Of a stretch of 45,643 bases of DNA, positions 10,815 to 20,809 are shown one piece after another. The notes beneath the pieces were generated by a model. It saw only the letters and a list, made by a program, of their open reading frames with translations. It searched no databases and was not told where the DNA came from. The position numbers and the translations under genes are program-made. The first letter of the stretch is position 1. Each line of letters opens with the position of its first letter. The stretch is from Gemmatimonadaceae bacterium (GTDB taxonomy: Bacteria; Gemmatimonadota; Gemmatimonadetes; Gemmatimonadales; Gemmatimonadaceae), in the NCBI GenBank assembly GCA_036263215.1, contig DATAHM010000079.1, forward strand, positions 1-45,643, written 5' to 3'.

Positions 10815-11354
10815 ATGAAAGCGACCCGTTCCCTGTTGGCCGTGATGGTGCTTGGAACAGCCATCGGCGCGAGCCAGGCCAGCGCACAGTGCAGCGGCAA
10901 TGCCGGCACTTGTAACACCGTCAACACCGCATCGGTCACCGTTGGCGCACTCGTCAAGCTCGACATGAGCTCCGCGAGCACAGCGCTCACCAGCCCGACC
11001 GCGGCCGACGTCGCCGCCGGCAACGTCCTGGCTGATGCCGGCCCGAGCTTCACGATCAAGGCGAACAGAAGCTGGACGCTCAAGATCAAGTCCCAGAACG
11101 CGACGAGCTGGACGTACGTCGGCAGCAACGCCGGTGTTAAGCCAATCTCGGATCTCTCCTGGGCCACTTCCGCGGGTGGCACCTATGTCGCGATCTCGAA
11201 CACCGACGCGACCTTCCTCTCGAGCGCGAGCTCGAGCAACGGAACGAGCGCCCAGGCGTTCTTCAAGACCAGCTGGGTCAACGACTTCTCGGACGCAAGC
11301 AACGCTCCCGGTACCTACAGCTTGCCGATCGTTTTCACCCTCACGGCACCGTAA
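10815..11354 (+). CDS. Secreted pilin-like subunit A (probable major subunit)
   Basis: GGAG RBS; signal peptide ...ASA|Q; N-terminal Cys pair; Ser/Thr/Ala-rich beta composition; C-terminal PGTYSLPIVFTLTAP strand resembling chaperone-usher pilin ends; paralogous to 16008 and 12234. Confidence 0.65.
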   Translation: MKATRSLLAVMVLGTAIGASQASAQCSGNAGTCNTVNTASVTVGALVKLDMSSASTALTSPTAADVAAGNVLADAGPSFTIKANRSWTLKIKSQNATSWTYVGSNAGVKPISDLSWATSAGGTYVAISNTDATFLSSASSSNGTSAQAFFKTSWVNDFSDASNAPGTYSLPIVFTLTAP

Positions 11355-11375
11355 TTCATGAAGCATTCTCGCTCT

Positions 11376-11397
11376 CGCTCGCCCGAAAGGGCGGGCG
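11376..11397 (+). promoter_or_regulatory. GC-rich stem-loop with GAAA tetraloop between pilin A and the chaperone gene (mRNA-stabilising or attenuating hairpin)
   Basis: CGCTCGCCC-GAAA-GGGCGGGCG forms a 9-bp stem with one G-U pair and has no U-tract. Confidence 0.5.
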
Positions 11398-11414
11398 CAG
11401 GGCGCAGAGGGCGA

Positions 11415-12227
11415 GTGCGGAACATTACCGTACTCGCCCTCTGCGCTACTGGGATCGCAGTCTCGCAGTCCGCTTCGGCGCAGCTGCTCGTCGACCCGCT
11501 CGAAGTGACGCTGATCACCGCGAGCCAGACTCGCGTGGCTGGCGCCTTCACGGTATCGAACACGACCGATGAACCCGTTCAGGCGACGATTACGCGCCAG
11601 GACTGGGACCGCGTCGAAAACGGCGACAATCGATTCCTGCCAAGTGGCACGAGCGGAAACTCGTGTGGCGCCCTGCTTACCGCGTCACCGCTCTCGATCC
11701 GAGTCGAGCCGCATACCTCGCGAACGATTCGCCTTGCAACCGAGAACGCGTCAACCCTGACCAGGGAGTGCTGGGATATTTTCTTCGTCGAGGAGATCCC
11801 GCGGCGTTCTACCACCAGCGGAAATTCGCTGCAGTACATCTTTCGGACGGGTGTGAAGGTGTACGTCGCGCCGCCGAATCTCACCCGTGATGGCGCTGTC
11901 GAGAATATGGCTGTGGAGGAAGTCCCACAGACCACCAACGTCGCCGCCAACGCCCCGGCCGCGACGAAGCGACAGATTGCTATCTCGTTTCACAACACCG
12001 GAGCCATGAACCTTCTCGCAAAGGGTCGGCTCGAGTTTCGGCGCCTCGATAACTCCCTGGCGATGGAAGTGCCGGTGCCTGAGTTCGCCACTTTGCCGGG
12101 CGCGACTAGAAAGCTGAGCCTCGATGTGCCAAGCGGGCTTGCACCTGGTGATTACGTAGTGCTCGCGCTCATCGATTTCGGGGGCGCCGAGCTAGTTGCC
12201 GGCCAGATCGATTACCAGGCGAAATAG
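11415..12227 (+). CDS. Periplasmic PapD-like fimbrial chaperone-type protein (ORF is open from 11358)
   Basis: Signal peptide MRNITVLALCATGIAVSQSASA|Q; FTVSNTTDEP; IFFVEEIP; LQYIFRTGVKVYVAP resembling a chaperone G1 strand; second Ig-like domain (FHNTG...TLPGATR). Confidence 0.7.
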   Translation: MRNITVLALCATGIAVSQSASAQLLVDPLEVTLITASQTRVAGAFTVSNTTDEPVQATITRQDWDRVENGDNRFLPSGTSGNSCGALLTASPLSIRVEPHTSRTIRLATENASTLTRECWDIFFVEEIPRRSTTSGNSLQYIFRTGVKVYVAPPNLTRDGAVENMAVEEVPQTTNVAANAPAATKRQIAISFHNTGAMNLLAKGRLEFRRLDNSLAMEVPVPEFATLPGATRKLSLDVPSGLAPGDYVVLALIDFGGAELVAGQIDYQAK

Positions 12228-12233
12228 ACAAGA

Positions 12234-12725
12234 ATGTCTCTGCGCTGGCGGGACCTCTCGGGCGGCAGCACCATCGCGGTGGTATTGGCGCTGGGTCTGT
12301 TCGCATCTCCGCTCGCGGCTCAGAAAACAAATCTTACGGTCACTGGCGGCAGCATCACGTTCCCAACGCCCACCGTCGCGGATTACATCAACGGCTATGT
12401 GGACGCCGCCGCCGGTGTGACGTTTACGATCGCCGCCCAGACCGGCTCATCGCGCACGACAACTGTGTCTGTGCGCTCCACCTCCGCGAACCTCGGTGGC
12501 GGCAAGCTAATCGGGGATCTGCAGTGGCGGCGAGCCGATCTGGCGACGTGGAACAGCATCTCGCTTACCGATGCGCAAATCGAGCAGCGAACCCTCGTCC
12601 GAAACTCGCTCAACGACCCGTGGAGCAACACGATCTTCTTCCGCATGGTTCTCAGCTGGGCGACAGACGCTCCGGGCACATACAACGGCAACTACGTAAT
12701 CACGCTCTCCCAGACGGTCCCGTGA
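12234..12725 (+). CDS. Secreted pilin-like subunit B
   Basis: Signal peptide ...LAA|Q. Shares PTxAD..G, KxxxDLxW, TDA and APGTY..I..L motifs with the 10815 and 16008 proteins. Confidence 0.6.
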   Translation: MSLRWRDLSGGSTIAVVLALGLFASPLAAQKTNLTVTGGSITFPTPTVADYINGYVDAAAGVTFTIAAQTGSSRTTTVSVRSTSANLGGGKLIGDLQWRRADLATWNSISLTDAQIEQRTLVRNSLNDPWSNTIFFRMVLSWATDAPGTYNGNYVITLSQTVP

Positions 12726-15568
12726 GCATGCGCTCACAACTCTTGATGGTGGTGGCCGCGATCACCGGAGCGTCGGCGTCGGCCCGAGGTCAGAGTGGGC
12801 TCGACCGAAGCCAGCCAACCAATGTGTCGGCAACCTCTCTCGCAGTGTGGGCTCCCGTGAGCCGGGACTCCGTTGCCTCGCGAGTGATCGTCGTGCCGAC
12901 AGTGCACGGCTCCGGCGCGCCACGGAGCTATCAGGTCGTTTCGATCCCCGTCCCGGAAGCCCTTGCCGGTGCGACGAACATCGAGATGGAAATCATTCCG
13001 CGTGGCGATTTCGTAATTCTTGGCGCGCGCACCCGCACTCTGGCGCCCTCGGTGCGCACCAAAGTCGGCGTAACCATTGGCATCCCGGCAAACGCGATGG
13101 CCGGCCGCCTGATCGCCGCCGAGGTGCGCTTTTCGGCACCCGCCGCAGCGGTCATGATCGTCCCGGTCGAGATCGATGTCAGCCTGGTTCGGCAGCTCTC
13201 GCTTCGCACCAACCGTACGCCGATGAACGCGCAGGCCGGAAGCGACGTGATCCTGCCATTCGAAATCACGAACTCCGGGAATGCGCCCGAGAAATTGACC
13301 ACCGACCTCGAGCTGCCGAACGGCTGGTCGCTGCGAGAGATGCATTCCTCACCGATCGTATTGCAGCCTGGTGAGACCATCAAAAAGCGATTGCGCCTGG
13401 CGGTTCCGTCACTTGCGAACACCGGCTCATCGTTCGTCCACATTGTTCTAGCCGCAGACGGCGAAAAAATGGACGACGCGGTGATGACGGTCGAAGTATT
13501 CAACTCGAGCTCGATTGGGCAGCAGGCCGGTCCGCTGCTGACTACCGGGCTCGCGCGTGTAAATGACGAAAACGGCCGGCCGAATAGTCTCTTGACCCTG
13601 AGCGCGACCGGTGCGCTGTTCGACTCAGTGCGGGTCGATGCGCGCATGTCGCGTTCATCCGCGCTCGGCGGCGCTTCGAGTAACGCATTCTCTCATCTGG
13701 GGGCGTACCAGTCCGCCGCATCCCTCGCCCTCACATCCCCAACTTCGCAGCTGAATTTCGGGAATACGGGAACTTCATTCTCCGATCTCACAGGCCTGTA
13801 TCCTTACGGGCAGGGCGCCTTGATCAAGCTCCAACACCCCGGCTGGTCATTCATCGGGTTGGGCGCGCTCGCGATCGCACAGCCCGGAGTCACAGACCGT
13901 CAGCCGATGGTTGGGCTGCGCGGCGAGCGGCAGGTGGGAGAGGTTCGCCTGAGCAGCTCGCTCACCCATCTGGGTGACGCGGGATTGTCGCCACGTAAGC
14001 TCGATGCCTTCGGCATTGGCGCATCTATCCCGGCATTCCTCGGCACCACCTTCAGGGCAGAAGTCGCCGAACGACGCTTCCAGGACGGGAGTGGTCTCGG
14101 GTGGTCGACGGGGCTCGTGCGAATCGGGTCCGATCGTAACGAAGAACTTCGCGTGACTCACGCGCCCGGAGGAAGCGATGCGTTCGCGCGCGCCGCAAAC
14201 GAAGTGGTGGTTAACCTGTCGGAACAACTCACATCCCGCGCGGCTGTAACTGCGTCCGGCTGGAGAACTACCGACGCGACATCGGTGTTCAGCGGTCTCA
14301 ATGCGCGAGGGCTTTCGCTGCGTCCGCAGTACGCCGTCTTCGGGTCGACGACGGTGTCAGTCGAGGCGCGCACCTATACCTTCGACGCTACGTCGCGGCC
14401 GACGCCCACAAATACAGGTGGCGGGTTCGGCAATCAGGAGCAGCAGCTAGGCTTCGGATTGAGCACTTATCTGCACCAGTACTACGTCAACACGACCGCG
14501 TATCTCGGAAATGTCACCCGCACTGTGTCACCAGTCGCTCAGGCAGTCGTCACGGATCGAACGCCTCGGAACTACTGGACGACGAATGCTGGCTGGGTCG
14601 GAACCGGCGGCGCGCTCGAGTTGCAAAGTCGCATCGAGCAAACTCGCGACCGCGCGGGATTCGTGAATCAGCAGACGATGGTAGGCGTTCGAGCCGAACA
14701 GCTGGTCCTCCCATGGCTCGGCGGCGTACGCGCCGAGGGCGAGCTGCAACACGTGAGTGGTTTTGGGGATCAAAGCTCCGGAATCGTGCGGGCCGGGCTT
14801 GCAGTGCCGATCGTAAACGGTCTTTCCTTCAAGCTCGATGCGGAACGCAACTCGATCTTCCATTCAACGAGTGGCAAAGTGCCGTGGATCGCTGGCATTC
14901 GCATCGAGCATTCGCTCACTGTGCCGATGTTGCGCAGACCTGGAACCTCTGGATACGTCTTCGAAGATCGCAACGGAAACCAGCGTCGGGATGCCGGCGA
15001 GCCCGGAGTACCGGGCGTCGTTGTTCGTCGCGGGGCTGAGACCGCAGTCGCGGATGCCAACGGCAGATATCGTGTTTCGGGCGATGTCTCGAAACCAATA
15101 GTTATCGATGAAGCCTCGTTGCCGGATGGCTGGACAGCGACTGGTAGCGAACGGTCCGACCTTGGGGTTTCGCTCACCACCGCAGCTCAAGTCGAGTTGG
15201 TCGTCGCGCCCCGATCCGGAATCACCTCGGTGCAGGTGGATCTTGCGGCGGCCCACGTCATTGCGCGCGACAGCAGTGGCCGAGAGTGGATCGCGAAAAT
15301 GACCGGACCGACGACAGCGACCTTCGAGTCTCTCCCGGTCGGCACCTACTTACTTGTATTCGATCTCTCGGAGCTCAGTGAGCCGCTGATTCCGAGAGGG
15401 CCGATCCCCACTCTTGTCGTTAACGGCAAAGACTCCAAATCCGTCACCATCACGCTCGACCCGAGACCAATCCGCATTTGGAAAGCTCCGACACCATTGG
15501 GACCGACGAATGGGACAACACCGTCGAACGGGAAGACGGCCGAGACCCCGCCGGCATCAAAATCATGA
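12722..15568 (+). CDS. Large secreted/outer-membrane usher-like protein: N-terminal Ig-like domains, central putative beta-barrel, C-terminal SdrD-B/CnaB-like domains (start GTG 12722 or ATG 12728)
   Basis: Signal peptide; FEITNSGN...LELPNGWS Ig/NEW3-like segment; long run of amphipathic beta-strands; SGYVFEDRNGNQRRDAGEPGVPGVVV SdrD-B-like Ca-binding loop; FESLPVGTY. GTGA overlap with the upstream gene. Confidence 0.6.
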   Translation: MSMRSQLLMVVAAITGASASARGQSGLDRSQPTNVSATSLAVWAPVSRDSVASRVIVVPTVHGSGAPRSYQVVSIPVPEALAGATNIEMEIIPRGDFVILGARTRTLAPSVRTKVGVTIGIPANAMAGRLIAAEVRFSAPAAAVMIVPVEIDVSLVRQLSLRTNRTPMNAQAGSDVILPFEITNSGNAPEKLTTDLELPNGWSLREMHSSPIVLQPGETIKKRLRLAVPSLANTGSSFVHIVLAADGEKMDDAVMTVEVFNSSSIGQQAGPLLTTGLARVNDENGRPNSLLTLSATGALFDSVRVDARMSRSSALGGASSNAFSHLGAYQSAASLALTSPTSQLNFGNTGTSFSDLTGLYPYGQGALIKLQHPGWSFIGLGALAIAQPGVTDRQPMVGLRGERQVGEVRLSSSLTHLGDAGLSPRKLDAFGIGASIPAFLGTTFRAEVAERRFQDGSGLGWSTGLVRIGSDRNEELRVTHAPGGSDAFARAANEVVVNLSEQLTSRAAVTASGWRTTDATSVFSGLNARGLSLRPQYAVFGSTTVSVEARTYTFDATSRPTPTNTGGGFGNQEQQLGFGLSTYLHQYYVNTTAYLGNVTRTVSPVAQAVVTDRTPRNYWTTNAGWVGTGGALELQSRIEQTRDRAGFVNQQTMVGVRAEQLVLPWLGGVRAEGELQHVSGFGDQSSGIVRAGLAVPIVNGLSFKLDAERNSIFHSTSGKVPWIAGIRIEHSLTVPMLRRPGTSGYVFEDRNGNQRRDAGEPGVPGVVVRRGAETAVADANGRYRVSGDVSKPIVIDEASLPDGWTATGSERSDLGVSLTTAAQVELVVAPRSGITSVQVDLAAAHVIARDSSGREWIAKMTGPTTATFESLPVGTYLLVFDLSELSEPLIPRGPIPTLVVNGKDSKSVTITLDPRPIRIWKAPTPLGPTNGTTPSNGKTAETPPASKS

Positions 15569-16011
15569 TGAGTCCTGACGCTCGTTTGAGCCCGAAGTTC
15601 GCCTGGATCGCGGCGTTGTCTTTAGCTACCAGCTGCCTGAGCTCAACCTCGCCGCAGCCATCCCGGATTCAAATGAACGGCGCGTGGGCCTACACTGCAG
15701 TTCAAACTCAACCGGTACGCGAAACCCTCAGTGGAACGCTCAGTGTGTCGCGCGAGTCCGGTTCGAGCTTTCAGGGTCGCCTGGATGTAGTGGCCACGAA
15801 CGAGCAAACTGGGCAAAACGTGGTGTTGGGCGGCCTGGTCAGCGGATCGCAAACGGCAACTGACGTCATCGACTTCGACGCAGACCTCGAGACAGTGCGG
15901 AGACATGTTGGTCAGATCGTCGCCGACACGATTACCGGAACCTGGATCGGGGCCACTCCCGACGGAACAGTCTCTTCCGGCACCTTCAGGGCGGAGCGCG
16001 AGAACCAATGA
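15565..16011 (+). CDS. Small beta-rich lipoprotein of unknown function
   Basis: Lipobox-like SLATSC; MNGAW, LSGTL, ITGTW and SGTFRAER strands; ATGA overlaps with both neighbours. Confidence 0.75.
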   Translation: MMSPDARLSPKFAWIAALSLATSCLSSTSPQPSRIQMNGAWAYTAVQTQPVRETLSGTLSVSRESGSSFQGRLDVVATNEQTGQNVVLGGLVSGSQTATDVIDFDADLETVRRHVGQIVADTITGTWIGATPDGTVSSGTFRAERENQ

Positions 16012-16553
16012 GGATAACCAATCTGTGTGGGTGCGCCTCGTTCCTCATGCTCGCCTCGCTCTCCCTGCCTGGGGTCGCCGGCGCTCAATGCCAGCTCACC
16101 ACCGCCCCCGCATCCTGCAGTCAACCGGGAAGTGTCACGCTCGGCGCAGTCCGCGTCGTACGGCTACAGGTAAATGCGGGATCGACGGCGCTCACTGCCC
16201 CGACCGCAGGCGATTTTGACGCGGGGTTCAATTCCACCACGGGACCGACTCTTACGGTGAGCGCCAACGCTCCATGGATGCTGCAGGTGCGTGCATCAGC
16301 CGCGTTCTGGACGGCAACAAATACTTCGCCTGGCGCTCCGGCTCGGACGGACAAACCAGCGGCCGACCTGAAGTGGGCGACAAGCGCTGGTGGACCTTTC
16401 AACCCGCTCGCTACGGCGGACGCCACCCTGGTGAGTGGATCGGCCACCGCGAGCAGCGCCACCACCCTTTACTTTCAAACACTCTACAGCTGGACGGTCG
16501 ACACGCCCGGCAACTACAGCCTGTCGGTTGTCCTGACTCTGACCGCTCCCTGA
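16008..16553 (+). CDS. Secreted pilin-like subunit C (paralog of 10815)
   Basis: AQC...C, STALTAPT, ANAPWML, KPAADLKWATSAGG and PGNYSLSVVLTLTAP, closely matching the 10815 protein. Confidence 0.65.
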   Translation: MRITNLCGCASFLMLASLSLPGVAGAQCQLTTAPASCSQPGSVTLGAVRVVRLQVNAGSTALTAPTAGDFDAGFNSTTGPTLTVSANAPWMLQVRASAAFWTATNTSPGAPARTDKPAADLKWATSAGGPFNPLATADATLVSGSATASSATTLYFQTLYSWTVDTPGNYSLSVVLTLTAP

Positions 16554-16563
16554 AACCCGCCAT

Positions 16564-16592
16564 TGTGACGTGCCGCACGCATCACGCAGTCT
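16564..16592 (+). promoter_or_regulatory. Putative ECF-dependent promoter 1 (TGTGAC-N18-AGTCT), likely autoregulatory and leaderless
   Basis: The motif ends 7 nt before the sigma ATG (16600), there is no SD sequence, and the same motif and spacing recur at 18922 and 19824. Confidence 0.7.
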
Positions 16593-16599
16593 TTCCACT

Positions 16600-17148
16600 A
16601 TGAGCGAGCAGTCCGACGCCCAGCTCGTGGCTCAGATTCTGGGTGGCGACGTCGAATCTTTCGGTGTGCTTTTCCAGCGATACCGCGACACCTGCACCAG
16701 ATTCGCCGTGCGCATGTTGGGCTCGAGCGCTGATGCGGATGACGTGTTACAGTCGGCATTCATGAGGGCTTATCGCAACCTCGCGAGCTGCCGAGATCCG
16801 GATCGGTTTGGAGGCTGGCTGTACCAGATAGTGGTCAACGAGTGCAGAACATTCGCGTCGCGACAGCGAAGACGCGAGCTGCGGTTCGTACCGGACCATG
16901 ACGTGATTGAGCGGGCAGCGGCAGAGCCCGAAGAAGATTCCAGCGGGACGATGAGCGAGCGGTTAGACCGCGCGCTCGCCGCTCTGCCGGTCGAGCAGCG
17001 GGAAGCTTTTCTTCTCAAGTACGTCGAGGAGATGAGCTACGAGGAAATGGCCGAGGTTACCCGGGTTGGCATTTCGGCGCTGAAGATGCGAGTGAAACGG
17101 GCCTGCGACGGGCTTCGAGACATGCTTGAGGGTGTGTACAATGACTGA
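16600..17148 (+). CDS. ECF RNA polymerase sigma-70 factor
   Basis: Region 2 (ADADDVLQSAFMRAY, FGGWLYQIVVN) and region 4 (MSYEEMAE...SALKMRVKRA). Confidence 0.95.
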   Translation: MSEQSDAQLVAQILGGDVESFGVLFQRYRDTCTRFAVRMLGSSADADDVLQSAFMRAYRNLASCRDPDRFGGWLYQIVVNECRTFASRQRRRELRFVPDHDVIERAAAEPEEDSSGTMSERLDRALAALPVEQREAFLLKYVEEMSYEEMAEVTRVGISALKMRVKRACDGLRDMLEGVYND

Positions 17149-17761
17149 CTTCCGAAACGAAATTTCCGAGGAGACCGCTGCATTCTGCGAGCGCATAGCC
17201 GCTGATCTTCGCGAGCCGGAGCGTCTCGATCCATCGTTCGACGCGAGACTGATGGCGAGGGTGCGACAGGAGGCGGGATTGCCGCACCAGGTTGAGCCCG
17301 GATCTTCGTGGTGGCGTACCGAGCGAGTGCTTCGCGTGTCTCCTCTCGCCGGCCTGGCGCTGGCTGCCGGAATTTCGACGTTCGTCGCGCTGTCGACCCT
17401 TGCGATTGGATCGCATCTCTGGTCGCGCAGCTCGGTTCCTGTTGCGGCTCAAGCGGTCGTTCGTACTCGCACAGACACGGTCAACGTCGTACGATTCGTG
17501 TTCGCCGATCCGAATGCCCGCAGCGTACAGCTGGTTGGGGATTTCAACGAGTGGACGAGGGGAGCTACCAATCTCAAGCCTTCGGGAGCACCTGGTGTGT
17601 GGAGTGTCTCGGTCCCACTGCATCCGGGCCGTCACGAGTACGCCTTCATCGTCAACGGAACGCGATGGATCGCGGATCCGCTTGCAACGAAGAGCTCCGA
17701 CGACTTCGGTACCGAGAGCTCCGTCATCCACGTCGGGGCGAGCTCCCAAAGTTCGAGCTGA
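17141..17761 (+). CDS. Putative anti-sigma factor: N-terminal cytoplasmic segment, one TM helix, C-terminal CBM48/AMPK-type glycogen-binding domain
   Basis: Overlaps the sigma stop; FDARLMARV anti-sigma-like helix; TM LAGLALAAGISTFVALSTLAIG; VQLVGDFNEW...GVWSVSVPLHPGRHEYAFIVNG.RW..DP...DDFG. Confidence 0.8.
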   Translation: MTDFRNEISEETAAFCERIAADLREPERLDPSFDARLMARVRQEAGLPHQVEPGSSWWRTERVLRVSPLAGLALAAGISTFVALSTLAIGSHLWSRSSVPVAAQAVVRTRTDTVNVVRFVFADPNARSVQLVGDFNEWTRGATNLKPSGAPGVWSVSVPLHPGRHEYAFIVNGTRWIADPLATKSSDDFGTESSVIHVGASSQSSS

Positions 17762-18911
17762 GCGCGGCCGAGCGCTGCTCTATTCGGCTGCCGCGGCGCT
17801 TTTTCTCAACACTTCTCCAGCAGCTGCACAGAACCCCCAGGCCAGCATCGATTTCGGCGGCCTGGCACTTCGCTATGCGGACAGTGTGAATGCCACCGCG
17901 GCGGCGATCACCCCCGACTTCCGGTTCGAATCCGCGGGCGCGAACGCGGAGGCGATGGGAACTTTCTCACAATTCAGCAGCGGCGGCTGGAGCTCACAGG
18001 GCACTCTCTCCAGCTCGTTTTTCCCCGGACGAGCCGGTCGGTTTTTTCTGGAACTGTCGGGGTTTGGTGGTGGCAGCTACCACCACGACGGCACCCGGAC
18101 GGGCGAAGCAATTGCCAACGCACGCGTTCATTTCTCGGGTGACCGCTCGGGTTTGTTCAGCGGCGGAGGAATCGGAACCACCTGGAACGTAGGTGGCTGG
18201 CGGCGCATTCTCGTAGGGGAGGTGGGCGCGTGGACGCGCTATGGACCGGGAAGCGCACTGCTGACGTTCAGCCCGGTCGCGGTGAACGACACGACGCGCT
18301 ACGCGGACGGACAGCTTTCATTTGAGGGAGCGGGCGACCGATTGGATCTTTCGGCGACAGCGGGATATCGCTGGGGATCCCGCCTCCCCGCCGACCTCGC
18401 CGGCGCGAGAGCCTGGGCCAGTTTCAGCGCGACTCAATGGCTCACACCAGTCTGGGGTGTGGTTGCGGCCGCCGGCTCATATCCTGTCGACCCAACCCAG
18501 GGTTTCCCCGGTGGTCGCTTTGTCTCGCTCGGTGTTCGACTCGCAACAGCCCGGCGGACTTCAGCAATGCTGCAGAACTACGACGTCAAAACTCCATCGG
18601 TGGCCGGATCGAGCACCCACTCGACCGATGCCGATGTCTTTCGGGTCATTAAAGACGCAGAGGGCCGCAACGTTTTGCGTTTCCGCGCGCCCCAGGCGAC
18701 ACGCGTCGAAATGAGCGGAGATTTCACGCAGTGGGAGCCCGTCGATCTCCAGCGGTCGCCGGATGGCTGGTGGACCGGAGCGGTTCCTGCCGCAGCTGGA
18801 AACTATCAGATGAATCTGCGCGTCGATGGCGGACCCTGGATGGTGCCGCCGGGAATGCTATCCATGAAGGACGAATTCGGCGGCGTTATAGGCCTGCTCG
18901 TAATAGAGTGA
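17751..18911 (+). CDS. Secreted putative outer-membrane beta-barrel protein with C-terminal CBM48-type glycogen-binding domain (start codon uncertain)
   Basis: Signal-like LLYSAAAALFLNTSPAAA|Q; amphipathic strands ending FVSLGVRL; C-terminal VEMSGDFTQW...GWW...VDGGPW...DEFGG. Confidence 0.7.
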   Translation, partial: VRAERGRALLYSAAAALFLNTSPAAAQNPQASIDFGGLALRYADSVNATAAAITPDFRFESAGANAEAMGTFSQFSSGGWSSQGTLSSSFFPGRAGRFFLELSGFGGGSYHHDGTRTGEAIANARVHFSGDRSGLFSGGGIGTTWNVGGWRRILVGEVGAWTRYGPGSALLTFSPVAVNDTTRYADGQLSFEGAGDRLDLSATAGYRWGSRLPADLAGARAWASFSATQWLTPVWGVVAAAGSYPVDPTQGFPGGRFVSLGVRLATARRTSAMLQNYDVKTPSVAGSSTHSTDADVFRVIKDAEGRNVLRFRAPQATRVEMSGDFTQWEPVDLQRSPDGWWTGAVPAAAGNYQMNLRVDGGPWMVPPGMLSMKDEFGGVIGLLVIE

Positions 18912-18921
18912 CCGTTATAAG

Positions 18922-18950
18922 TGTGACTTGTCCGCGCGTTCCCGTAGTCT
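18922..18950 (+). promoter_or_regulatory. Putative ECF-dependent promoter 2 (TGTGAC-N18-AGTCT)
   Basis: Exact repeat of motif and spacing in the intergenic region upstream of 19029. Confidence 0.7.
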
Positions 18951-19028
18951 ATATGGGTATGGAGAACCGGTATGGACGTACGGCTCCCTTGAATGAAATG
19001 ACGAAAGACTCCCGAGAGGAGATGCAGG

Positions 19029-19757
19029 ATGATCCTAATGCGTAAGTCTTCATTGGTTATCGCCGCCGCTTTGCTGATTGCGCGAGTTGCTGGCGCGCAG
19101 ACGCCGGCCAACGATCCGTCCGCACGGTTGAAGCAGGTATTGCCGGCGGACGTTGCCCAGCGCGTCCTCGACAGAATTGCCGCCGCCCGAGCGCATCAGC
19201 TTCCCGCCGCGGCACTGGAAAATCGCGCGCTCAAGTTCGCAGCACGCGGTGTCGACCCGCGCAACATTGAGCGCTCAGTGAACGAGCAGGCCGATCGCAT
19301 GGAGATCGCACGCGATGCAATCGCCGCCGGACGCGGCAGCAAACCAGCAGGCGACGAGATCGAAGCTGGAGCTGAGGCCATCAGAAAAGGTGTGGACGGC
19401 GCTGCTGTGAGCTCGCTGGCGCGGAGCGCGCCGCACGATCGGTCGCTTGCGGTTCCATTGTTCGTGATTGGAAGTCTCAGAGATCACGGCCTGTCTTCCG
19501 CAGAGGCGCTGAATCGTGTGCTTGCCGGACTCGCGGCAAAGGATTCCGATGCGGATCTCGAGAGCATGCCAGGCGCGTTGCCGGCCGAGGCAGCATCGGG
19601 CCAGGCGCACAAGCCTGTCGGAGTGGGATCAGCGAACGGGCGTGGACCGACTTCGACGGGAAGACCGGCCTCGGCAGGACCGCCGGCCGGCGTCCCGGGA
19701 AATGGCGGATCCCGCTCGAACGCGGGTCACGCACACAAGCCGCCGCCGCACAAGTAG
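19029..19757 (+). CDS. Secreted alpha-helical protein with Pro/Gly-rich tail, unknown function
   Basis: Signal peptide ...VAGA|Q; Ala-rich helical repeats; low-complexity C-terminus. Confidence 0.8.
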   Translation: MILMRKSSLVIAAALLIARVAGAQTPANDPSARLKQVLPADVAQRVLDRIAAARAHQLPAAALENRALKFAARGVDPRNIERSVNEQADRMEIARDAIAAGRGSKPAGDEIEAGAEAIRKGVDGAAVSSLARSAPHDRSLAVPLFVIGSLRDHGLSSAEALNRVLAGLAAKDSDADLESMPGALPAEAASGQAHKPVGVGSANGRGPTSTGRPASAGPPAGVPGNGGSRSNAGHAHKPPPHK

Positions 19758-19768
19758 GATCGCAAACG

Positions 19769-19813
19769 CGAAAAAAAGAGGAAGAGCCTGGCGCTCTTCC
19801 TCTTTTTTTTTCG
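19769..19813. terminator. Rho-independent terminator (bidirectional geometry)
   Basis: AAAAAAAGAGGAAGAGC-ctggc-GCTCTTCCTCTTTTTTTTT. Confidence 0.9.
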
Positions 19814-19823
19814 ATAGGTGCGT

Positions 19824-19852
19824 TGTGACCAAATGTGTGCGTAGGCGAGTCA
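19824..19852 (+). promoter_or_regulatory. Putative ECF-dependent promoter 3 (TGTGAC-N18-AGTCA)
   Basis: Same motif and spacing, immediately after the terminator and upstream of the DUF4382 gene. Confidence 0.65.
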
Positions 19853-19921
19853 GAAAAATGTGTGGCTGGACAAAGCATCGTTCCACGCCCTGACCAAAAT
19901 GATGTCATCTGGAGACAAAAG

Positions 19922-20809
19922 ATGTACAGAACTCTTCGACTTTTTGCGGCACTCGCGCTCGGCGCGGTCGGCGTCGCCGCGTGCAGCGATTCCTCCGGAA
20001 CGGGCAGCGGACTGCTCACAGTGCGTCTCACCGACGCGCCGTTCCCGTTCTCTGATGTTGCCAGCGTGAATGTCTATGTGGTGAGAGTGGACGCCAGAGC
20101 CTCGGAGCCCACGGACGCCGAAGCTGCCGACGAGTCAGACACCGACGGGTGGACAACGGTCGCGACACCGAACACGTCCATCGATCTGCTGCAGCTCGGG
20201 GGCGGGCAGACTACCAACCTCGGCGCTACGACGCTCGCGACCGGAACCTACAATGGATTCCGCTTGATCATTGATCCGAGCAAGTCTTCTATCACTCTCA
20301 AGGACGGATCCTCCCCGCCGATCTTTTTCCCGAGCGCGGCTCATTCCGGAATCAAGGTCAACCTCGACCAACCAATCCAGCTAACTGAAAACGGCTCGGT
20401 GATGACGCTGGACTTCGATGTTGGCCGCAGCTTCGTGATGCGCGGAAATAACCCCGCTAACGGATTCAACTTCAAGCCAGTGATCCGTGCCGTCGCGCAG
20501 GACATTACAGGCAGTGTCACGGGCTCCGTGCACGCGAACAGTGCAACCGGGCCTGCTGTGCCGGGGGCGACGGTAGAGGTTCTTACGGCTGGGTCGCTTC
20601 TTACCGATGCGGATCCGGCTCACGTCATTCGTACGACCAGCACCGATGCCGACGGAAACTTCCGCATCGCTTTCCTGCTGCCGGGAACGTACGTGCTCAG
20701 AGCAACCCCTCCGGCAGAGAGCGGCTTCAAACCCGCGCTTCTGCCCGATGGGCTCACCATCACCAAGGGTACCGAAACCCAGAACCAGGTGATCGTGGTA
20801 GCGCCGTAA
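19922..20809 (+). CDS. DUF4382-type lipoprotein with C-terminal carboxypeptidase-regulatory-like (transthyretin/CnaB-like) domain
   Basis: Lipobox VAAC; LTVRLTDAP, IDLLQL, SGIKV, TLDFDVGRS and FKPVI (DUF4382); TDADGNF...LLPGTY. Confidence 0.82.
   Translation: MYRTLRLFAALALGAVGVAACSDSSGTGSGLLTVRLTDAPFPFSDVASVNVYVVRVDARASEPTDAEAADESDTDGWTTVATPNTSIDLLQLGGGQTTNLGATTLATGTYNGFRLIIDPSKSSITLKDGSSPPIFFPSAAHSGIKVNLDQPIQLTENGSVMTLDFDVGRSFVMRGNNPANGFNFKPVIRAVAQDITGSVTGSVHANSATGPAVPGATVEVLTAGSLLTDADPAHVIRTTSTDADGNFRIAFLLPGTYVLRATPPAESGFKPALLPDGLTITKGTETQNQVIVVAP

Follow-up and report, generated by a model that had tools for sequence, protein, structure and literature searches.

A six-gene cluster in a Gemmatimonadaceae bacterium predicted to encode a chaperone-usher-like pilus with a plug-less usher-like barrel

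Results

Organization of the gene cluster

The window analyzed here is a stretch of 45,643 nucleotides from a Gemmatimonadaceae bacterium (GenBank assembly GCA_036263215.1, contig DATAHM010000079.1, positions 1 to 45,643 of the forward strand; the source genome is 56% complete), and the subject is a cluster of six genes within it that appears to encode three pilins, a PapD-like chaperone, a lipoprotein and an outer-membrane protein that resembles the ushers of chaperone-usher pili but has no plug. The genes and the features within them are as follows.

10815..11354, + strand: pilin A (P0001, 179 residues), likely the major subunit, with a predicted signal peptide (residues 1-24), a cysteine pair and an Ig-like body
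10887..10952, + strand: predicted N-terminal donor strand of pilin A, with Cys2, Cys9 and alternating hydrophobic residues at 15, 17 and 19
11358..12227, + strand: two-domain periplasmic chaperone (P0002, 289 residues) with a match to PF00345 (PapD_N) and the G1-like strand LQYIFRTGVKVYV
12234..12725, + strand: pilin B (P0003, 163 residues), a homologous pilin without a donor strand (hhalign, 99.5% to pilin A/C)
12728..15568, + strand: usher-like outer-membrane protein (P0004, 946 residues) with two N-terminal Ig domains, a barrel and two C-terminal domains
12884..13501, + strand: the two N-terminal Ig-like domains (residues about 53-151 and 157-258), the second of which is NEW3/NPCBM_assoc
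13535..14920, + strand: residues 270-731, predicted to form a barrel of 26 strands in which a short helix separates strand 13 from strand 14
13835..13843, + strand: turn of three residues that joins strand 6 to strand 7, the plug site, where plug-bearing ushers have about 80 extra residues
14948..15463, + strand: C-terminal domains, SdrD_B-like and then CarboxypepD_reg-like, at the position of usher CTD1/CTD2
15565..16011, + strand: predicted lipoprotein (P0005, 148 residues, Cys24), beta-rich and of no known family, with a lipobox-like pattern
16008..16553, + strand: pilin C (P0006, 181 residues), a second pilin with a predicted donor strand, 41% identical to pilin A

A preliminary description of the locus, made from the sequence alone, had reported six tightly linked genes in the same orientation, and the six packed open reading frames (ORFs) bear this out, with intergenic spacings of 3, 6, 2, -4 and -4 bases in order. 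The same description had joined the last four genes by GTGA and ATGA overlaps. Both ATGA overlaps are present, whereas the GTGA overlap between pilin B and the large gene requires that the in-frame GTG at 12722, and not the ATG at 12728, is the start codon. The guanine-plus-cytosine (GC) content at third codon positions is 0.68 to 0.83 in the six ORFs, which is what real genes in a genome of about 61% GC would be expected to show. The proposed check of synteny was also borne out: close relatives have the six genes in identical order at 63 to 90% identity, and distant Gemmatimonadales have the same genes in the same order at about 25 to 35% identity, a recurrence that takes the cluster beyond chance. 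The large protein is 67 to 74% identical to proteins in metagenome-assembled genomes of Gemmatimonadaceae, which are its nearest named relatives and place the divergent surface-fiber assembly system that had been suggested in a nonproteobacterial lineage. A scan for promoters and terminators gave a result at chance level, and three metatranscriptomes from the same study yielded five short fragments of 37 to 71 bases, which are uninformative either way on expression. Signal peptides and the lipobox were assessed by eye and by regular expression.

An usher-like barrel without a plug

The beta-rich protein of about 950 residues noted earlier has 946 residues, and its AlphaFold2 model (predicted local distance difference test score [pLDDT], 90.2) contains a barrel, the lack of which had been named as a reason to abandon the pilus interpretation. 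FimD and PapC structures fill Foldseek ranks 1 to 12 (best E value, 2.7e-13), and in VIA structural comparisons the barrel and both C-terminal domains (model residues 222 to 867) aligned with FimD with a Z score of 16.8 and a root mean square deviation (rmsd) of 10 over 483 residues. The cluster is predicted to encode, along with the chaperone and the pilins, an outer-membrane barrel with two periplasmic C-terminal domains. The DSSP list of the model gives 26 consecutive barrel strands, which is a predicted and not an experimental count, whereas known ushers have a 24-strand barrel according to the accessible text of PMC3394950, and the available part of a preprint on strand counts places Fim/Usher barrels at 16 and 24 strands (10.64898/2026.03.07.710327). 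The N-terminus holds two Ig domains at the position of the PapC_N-type recruiting domain of ushers; the VIA alignments with ushers begin at about model residue 221, in comparisons that covered the Ig region as part of the whole model.

The main oddity of the protein is the missing plug together with the predicted 26-strand barrel. From the strand-5 motif to strand 7 there are 28 residues here, against 105 in a plug-bearing usher of the DUF4402 type and 110 in one of the canonical type, also of this phylum. These control spans agree with the plug of PapC, which has 83 residues, keeps the pore closed at rest and is needed for a pilus to form as far as the accessible text of PMC3394950 describes it. 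The relatives were collected by a profile search of 1.84 billion representatives, in which 142 of the best 150 matches belonged to the family and were mostly full-length; the other eight, which are repeat proteins, were dropped before alignment, and 83 of the 149 rows were used for the fold. The stretch at the plug site is 14 to 17 residues long in 148 of the 149 aligned rows, and none of the 149 has an insert of at least 40 residues between adjacent strands. In distant relatives, the plug site spans 26 to 29 residues (35/35) and the usher-like G-D hairpin motif of strands 5 and 6 is kept in 33 of 35. The absence of the plug is well supported, being visible in the sequences as well as in the model.

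A PapD-like chaperone of neither described anchor type

The strand LQYIFRTGVKVYVAP, which the preliminary description had assigned to a two-domain periplasmic protein, was located in the 289-residue product of the second gene. This protein matches PF00345 (PapD_N) in Pfam with 38.5 bits (cutoff, 23), which at the level of sequence answers the objection that the chaperone might have no PapD-like fold. PapD_N is matched by 18 of the 29 aligned members, PapD_C in Pfam gave no match, and the nearest solved relatives are CupB2, YadV and FaeE. Pro70 and Lys126 are both invariant (29/29), and the latter aligns with the G1 lysine of CupB2 and FaeE. The site of the expected N-terminal arginine, which we take from the alignment and from PapD numbering, is mostly glutamate (24/29, position 8), with arginine at position 6 in 6 of 29.

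Classical chaperones (PapD, FimC and Caf1M) have a carboxylate anchor in domain 1 (Arg20/Lys139 in Caf1M), and archaic and alternative chaperones (CsuC, EcpB and CfaA) have an arginine (Arg89) that is invariant on strand F of their first domain, which the accessible text of PMC4654587 describes as the most characteristic feature of nonclassical chaperones. The strand-F arginine of an archaic Caballeronia chaperone, which we infer to be the counterpart of CsuC Arg89, aligns with Ile100 here; isoleucine is found at this position in 20 of 29 members, and none of the four commonest residues is arginine. Candidate counterparts of the domain-2 pair Arg174/Tyr196 of archaic and alternative chaperones are Arg187 and Tyr225, both of them invariant (29/29). 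By its aligned residues, the chaperone appears to fit neither anchor type cleanly. The maximum in a crude hydropathy scan of its C-terminus was 1.48. A tree of 45 chaperones placed the 29 of this type on one side of a branch supported 96/86, with 10 DUF4402-type chaperones separate from them and the Deinococcus and Arthrobacter DUF916 rows clustering together on long branches; the tree is unrooted and its long branches meet, and no order of events was derived from it.

Three pilins, one of which has no donor strand

The motifs that had been listed for the three small proteins (PT..D..G, K...DL.W, DA, PG.Y and ends in TLTAP or TLSQTVP) are all present, and the proteins are 38 to 41% identical to the first of them, pilin A. 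Mature pilin A was modeled by AlphaFold2 from a 65-row alignment as a beta-sandwich body with a pLDDT of 93.6. No secondary structure was assigned over mature residues 1 to 22, with a pLDDT of about 90 from residue 11. This segment has Cys2 and Cys9, each of them present in 62 of the 65 sequences, and positions 15, 17 and 19 are hydrophobic in 91 to 95% of the 65, which as a sequence pattern is that of a donor strand. The model leaves the N-terminal strand unpaired and matches donor-strand pilins, in place of the self-complemented fold that had been raised as a counterargument. The best VIA row was TLP-1b (Z score, 10.7; 147 aligned residues; rmsd, 3.2), followed by CsuA/B (8.6), CS20 (8.5), FimG (8.0) and an unrelated CEP192 domain (8.0), and Foldseek ranked TLP-1a, PapA and CfaB first (TLP-1 E value, 5.3e-4); each of the four best VIA rows and of the ten best Foldseek rows is a subunit of a donor-strand fiber. 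Pilin A is thus predicted, from its model, to be an Ig-like pilin with an N-terminal donor strand. A sequence search with it gave 884 matches at an E value of ≤0.001, the best 120 at 77 to 93% identity, and in relatives it is the first gene of the cluster.

Pilin B has lost the donor strand. The hhalign alignment of the pilin A/C profile with it begins at mature residue 23 of pilin A and at residue 3 of pilin B, and since pilin B starts where the body of pilin A starts, it could receive a strand but would have none to offer. The short N-terminus is common to 25 of 25 aligned members, and visual inspection of 8 further copies of the cluster, in which the profile missed pilin B, showed a diverged small protein at the same place. 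These features suggest that pilin B is likely a tip cap or first subunit. Pilin C has the same cysteine pair and N-terminal pattern as pilin A and is the last gene of the cluster in relatives, and it may serve as a minor subunit, an adaptor or a terminator.

Further pilin paralogues were found outside the operon. One stands alone on the - strand of an 8.5-kb contig of the same genome (G000:C99:2933-3469, locus L079) and is 64% identical to pilin A; this contig has no chaperone or usher match beside it, and the paralogue may use the machine of the six-gene operon. In several Gemmatimonadales, a fourth paralogue lies on the opposite strand, convergent with the end of the operon (L040:11297-11809, L045:4703-5197, L046:5385-5891 and L050:3248-3754).

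Distribution of the plug-less design

Of 301 sampled genomes of the phylum, 100 gave a match of some kind to the large protein, and 24, including the source genome, had a near-full-length match at an E value of ≤3e-38. The other 76 were left out of this count, their matches being partial and mostly to the SdrD_B-like domain. The recurrent order in Gemmatimonadales is pilin A, chaperone, pilin B, barrel, lipoprotein and pilin C. The Pfam Usher profile found 2 of the same 301 genomes, 1 of them above the cutoff. A canonical plug-bearing usher that passes this cutoff was seen in another family of the phylum (L088; G249:C1:3707219-3710698), with a chaperone-like ORF upstream of it in this one genome.

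Beyond the phylum, a tblastn search of plasmids with the chaperone reached Deinococcus sp. strain NW-56; the corresponding search of plasmids with the usher-like protein gave no match. Three Deinococcus plasmids have the order pilin, chaperone, short pilin and large protein, and D. deserti has a four-gene variant of the cluster (DEIDE_RS15110-15125). Compared by hhalign with the family described here, Deinococcus gave 99.7% for the chaperone, 97.4% for the N-terminal domains and 98.2% for the C-terminal domains; the major pilins were not significant against the pilin A profile (0.7%). Relatives of the D. deserti chaperone were then used to scan metagenomes, and the best 80 of 266 matches were kept. 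On + strand ORFs at an E value of <0.01, all 80 of these loci matched the chaperone profile, 68 the N-terminal domains, 43 the C-terminal domains, 32 the barrel and 47 pilin A/C. The barrel gene lies 3' of the chaperone gene in most of the longer loci examined, and 35 distinct full-length large proteins from distant loci align with the barrel alone (97.4%, 384 columns). The distant metagenome loci range from 37 to 70% GC and typically have pilins both with and without a donor strand, the former aligning weakly with the pilins here (77.6%, 49 columns). As judged by these profile matches, the design of chaperone, plug-less barrel and pilins recurs on Deinococcus plasmids and metagenome contigs, and its wide spread, like the missing plug, is well supported by sequence and models. 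In some metagenome loci, several pilins are also preceded by an additional chaperone-like gene that has diverged further (L107:1843-2847 and L110:1837-2841).

A lipoprotein of the Gemmatimonadales form

The extra lipoprotein component that the preliminary description had proposed is present in the Gemmatimonadales form of the cluster and was not found in more distant loci of the same design. Its cysteine is invariant (29/29), and a regular expression found the lipobox-like pattern in 28 of 28 homologues. Searches of Pfam, NCBIfam and the Protein Data Bank gave no match; the nearest ESM clusters are without names, and OAA lectin (0.86), avidin (0.81) and calycin (0.79) all fall below the lead threshold. 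The lipoprotein could stand in for the missing plug in trans or act as an obligatory gate to the pore, much as LptD and LptE offer a precedent for a lipoprotein plug. Its gene lies directly 3' of the barrel gene in 28 of 35 copies and at the same locus in 33 of 35, and strong matches occur in the same 24 of 301 genomes as the full-length barrel, a count that is partly circular because the profile was built from these loci and in which related genomes are not independent. We nevertheless consider this role unlikely: no homologue was found at an E value of <0.01 on either strand of 84 distant plug-less loci, 38 of them at least 7 kb long, the gene is missing from one locus (L065) and undetected in that genome, and each of two genomes with a pair of barrel genes has a single lipoprotein match. 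Since it tracks the Gemmatimonadales form and was not found in the 84 distant loci, the lipoprotein is probably a lineage accessory. Thirteen further genomes had weak lipoprotein matches only (E values of 1e-11 to 8e-6). At another locus (L056; G136:C1:2017000-2037000), two complete clusters stand in tandem and have in common a single lipoprotein gene, which is divergently transcribed.

Genes downstream of the cluster

Positions 16591 to 20809 of the window, 3' of the operon, encode an extracytoplasmic function (ECF) sigma factor, a membrane anti-sigma-like protein with CBM48, a barrel-like protein with a CBM48-like tail, an uncharacterized secreted protein and a DUF4382 lipoprotein; these genes are possibly a glucan-sensing module. 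The sigma and anti-sigma genes adjoin the pilus cluster in only 3 of 35 scanned loci and were rejected as a part of the system.

Discussion

The most probable interpretation of the cluster, in our view, is that the operon builds a surface fiber by chaperone-guided donor-strand exchange through a plug-less usher-like barrel. All six proteins would be exported through N-terminal signals, and each incomplete pilin would borrow the G1 strand of the chaperone, which belongs to the PapD family. Pilin B, lacking a donor strand, would be first out and would cap the tip, like SafD and AfaD, SafD being a precedent for a single-domain cap in the accessible text of PMC5700814. Pilin A would polymerize by insertion of its N-terminal strand into the preceding subunit, with pilin C as a minor subunit, and the task of gripping the chain and passing it through would fall to the barrel and its two C-terminal domains, as it does in FimD and PapC. 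One of the two N-terminal Ig domains may take over the job of the plug, with the pore shut before the first subunit arrives; of the candidate gates, an Ig domain seems the most likely because both domains are kept in all distant forms and the lipoprotein is not. The putative lipoprotein would likely be an accessory, either for anchoring or for the insertion of the usher, and a role of the fiber in adhesion or biofilm formation in soil is likely.

Several observations weigh against this interpretation. The plug is needed for the formation of Pap pili according to the accessible text of PMC3394950, so a plug-less usher would need a substitute for it. The rmsd of the model to ushers is high (6 to 17 Å), and its predicted template modeling score is only 0.68, which makes the domain positions uncertain. 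Both the barrel strand count and the open groove of the pilin were taken from the secondary-structure list and not from three-dimensional coordinates. Pfam Usher, PapC_N and PapC_C matched 0 of 32 close members (E value, ≤0.05) and 0 of 10 distant members (E value, ≤0.01), whereas a control archaic usher passed Pfam Usher, and a profile of the barrel alone against the three Deinococcus proteins was not significant (4.1%). The best VIA match of the barrel, finally, was MtrB, an electron-conduit porin with 26 strands, with a Z score of 19.4 against 16.8 for FimD.

The match to MtrB raises the possibility that the barrel is a passive wide porin or a surface anchor and that the pilins polymerize by chaperone priming alone, as in WxL/ElrD or TasA. 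Besides MtrB, the lack of a plug and of a Pfam Usher match would fit this, as would the grading of the chaperone family into DUF916 proteins of Actinomycetota and the ESM features that tie pilin A to WxL clusters (0.93); ElrE alone drives the polymerization of ElrD, as reported in the accessible text of 10.64898/2026.10.17.759780. Against a passive barrel speak the position of both C-terminal domains at the CTD1/CTD2 site of ushers in the FimD alignment, the ushers in its first 12 Foldseek matches, the retained G-D hairpin motif of strands 5 and 6 and the place of its gene after the chaperone gene in most of the longer loci, and we regard it as quite improbable. That a real usher machine makes short fibrils, an F1-like capsule or a surface lattice in which paralogues are mixed is very unlikely, since the nearest solved structures (TLP-1, Csu and CS20) are all long rods and pilin A is as strongly conserved as a major subunit would be, even if the cluster has no two-domain adhesin, several loci have at least 4 pilin paralogues, some on the opposite strand, and the single-domain cap resembles that of FGL poly-adhesin systems (PMC5700814, accessible text).

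If a fiber is indeed assembled through the plug-less barrel, the family is of interest in several respects. A natural family that has lost the plug and keeps the chaperone, the pilins and both C-terminal domains makes the purpose of the plug directly testable, and related clusters in cultured Deinococcus strains offer a route to the bench. Surveys that use Pfam Usher undercount such pili because the profile misses the plug-less family, as seen from the 2 of 301 genomes that it found against the 24 with a full-length member. A literature search, with most subscription papers and supplements outside its coverage, gave no description of a plug-less usher-like family. A broader proposal would combine a separate, multiphylum chaperone-usher branch that Pfam Usher does not see with a natural 26-strand plug-less usher, gating by an N-terminal Ig domain or by the first subunit, which has no donor strand, an assembly route for TLP-1-type fibrils, and an evolutionary link that would join the usher pili of diderms to the WxL/DUF916 pili, which have no usher; that all of these hold jointly is a tentative and rather doubtful proposition.

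Comparison with known systems

The closest structural match of pilin A leads to orphan fibrils with no known maker or assembly route. TLP-1a and TLP-1b (PDB 9IKJ and 9IKK) are donor-strand fibrils from pond water that form an 8-nm tubule with an n+4 donor, according to the accessible text of PMC11494351. TLP-1 resembles pilin A in its fold (Z score of 10.7, against 8.6 for the next row) and its N-terminal donor strand and differs in its protomer of 236 residues with long loops, compared to 155 residues for pilin A. The relationship was not seen by sequence, as the Gemmatimonadales pilin profile was not significant against TLP-1 (E values, 0.15 and 0.54) and neither 51 distant pilins nor the Deinococcus NW-56 pilin matched it. 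The match in fold suggests where the assembly genes of these orphan fibrils might be sought.

The WxL/DUF916 (Elr) pili of Bacillota are assembled by chaperone-primed donor-strand exchange, as would be the case here, and a WxL cluster is among the nearest ESM matches of pilin A (0.93), while the Deinococcus chaperones reach an Arthrobacter DUF916 protein. Elr pili differ in that they lack an usher, have their chaperone anchored in the membrane and use a sortase anchor, whereas a barrel gene is present here; the accessible text of the Elr paper (10.64898/2026.10.17.759780) does not mention Gemmatimonadota, Deinococcus or TLP. Membership in this group was rejected on account of the barrel gene and of two negative results: neither PF13731 (WxL) nor PF06030 (DUF916) matched the proteins of the window or their alignments, and the strict WxL C-terminal motif, in what we take to be its definition, was found in 0 of 65 pilins. 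On a plasmid of Arthrobacter sp. strain YA7-1 (L085:3229-5534), reached from the Deinococcus chaperone, a pilin-like gene, a gene for a DUF916 protein whose C-terminal tail is hydrophobic and another pilin-like gene stand together with no barrel, and by gene content this locus is an actinobacterial usher-less counterpart.

A second chaperone-usher-like cluster type of Gemmatimonadota, with DUF4402 pilins (L064-L077 and L087), has the same C-terminal domain pair (hhalign, 99.3%) and a layout of pilin, pilin, chaperone and usher; no description of these loci was found in the literature search. It differs in its N-terminus, its PF14352 pilins and its chaperone group, and the sole usher measured (L087) retains the plug, its match to Pfam Usher being weak (E value, 6.6e-4).

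Archaic and alternative pili (Csu and CupE; CFA/I, CS20 and ECP) are alike in the fold of the pilin, with the Z scores of 8.6 for CsuA/B and 8.5 for CS20 given above, in the invariant chaperone proline (29/29) and in that SCPU is one of the nearest ESM clusters (0.93, with 14% of members). They differ in that the position of their strand-F arginine aligns with an isoleucine here and that the archaic control usher has a plug and passes Pfam Usher; the two-domain tip adhesin is missing here.

With the classical Pap and Fim pili (FimD, 3RFZ; PapC, 7LHG), the system shares a PapD_N chaperone with an invariant G1 lysine, a barrel followed by two C-terminal domains and a pilin fold of the donor-strand type. 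It differs from them in its predicted count of 26 strands instead of 24, in having neither a plug nor a match to Pfam Usher, in the two Ig domains that apparently replace PapC_N at the N-terminus, in the missing two-domain adhesin and in the additional lipoprotein. Judged by sequence and model, the system falls outside the fimbrial usher family (PF00577) on plug, strand count and Pfam match, yet in function it appears to be chaperone-usher-like.

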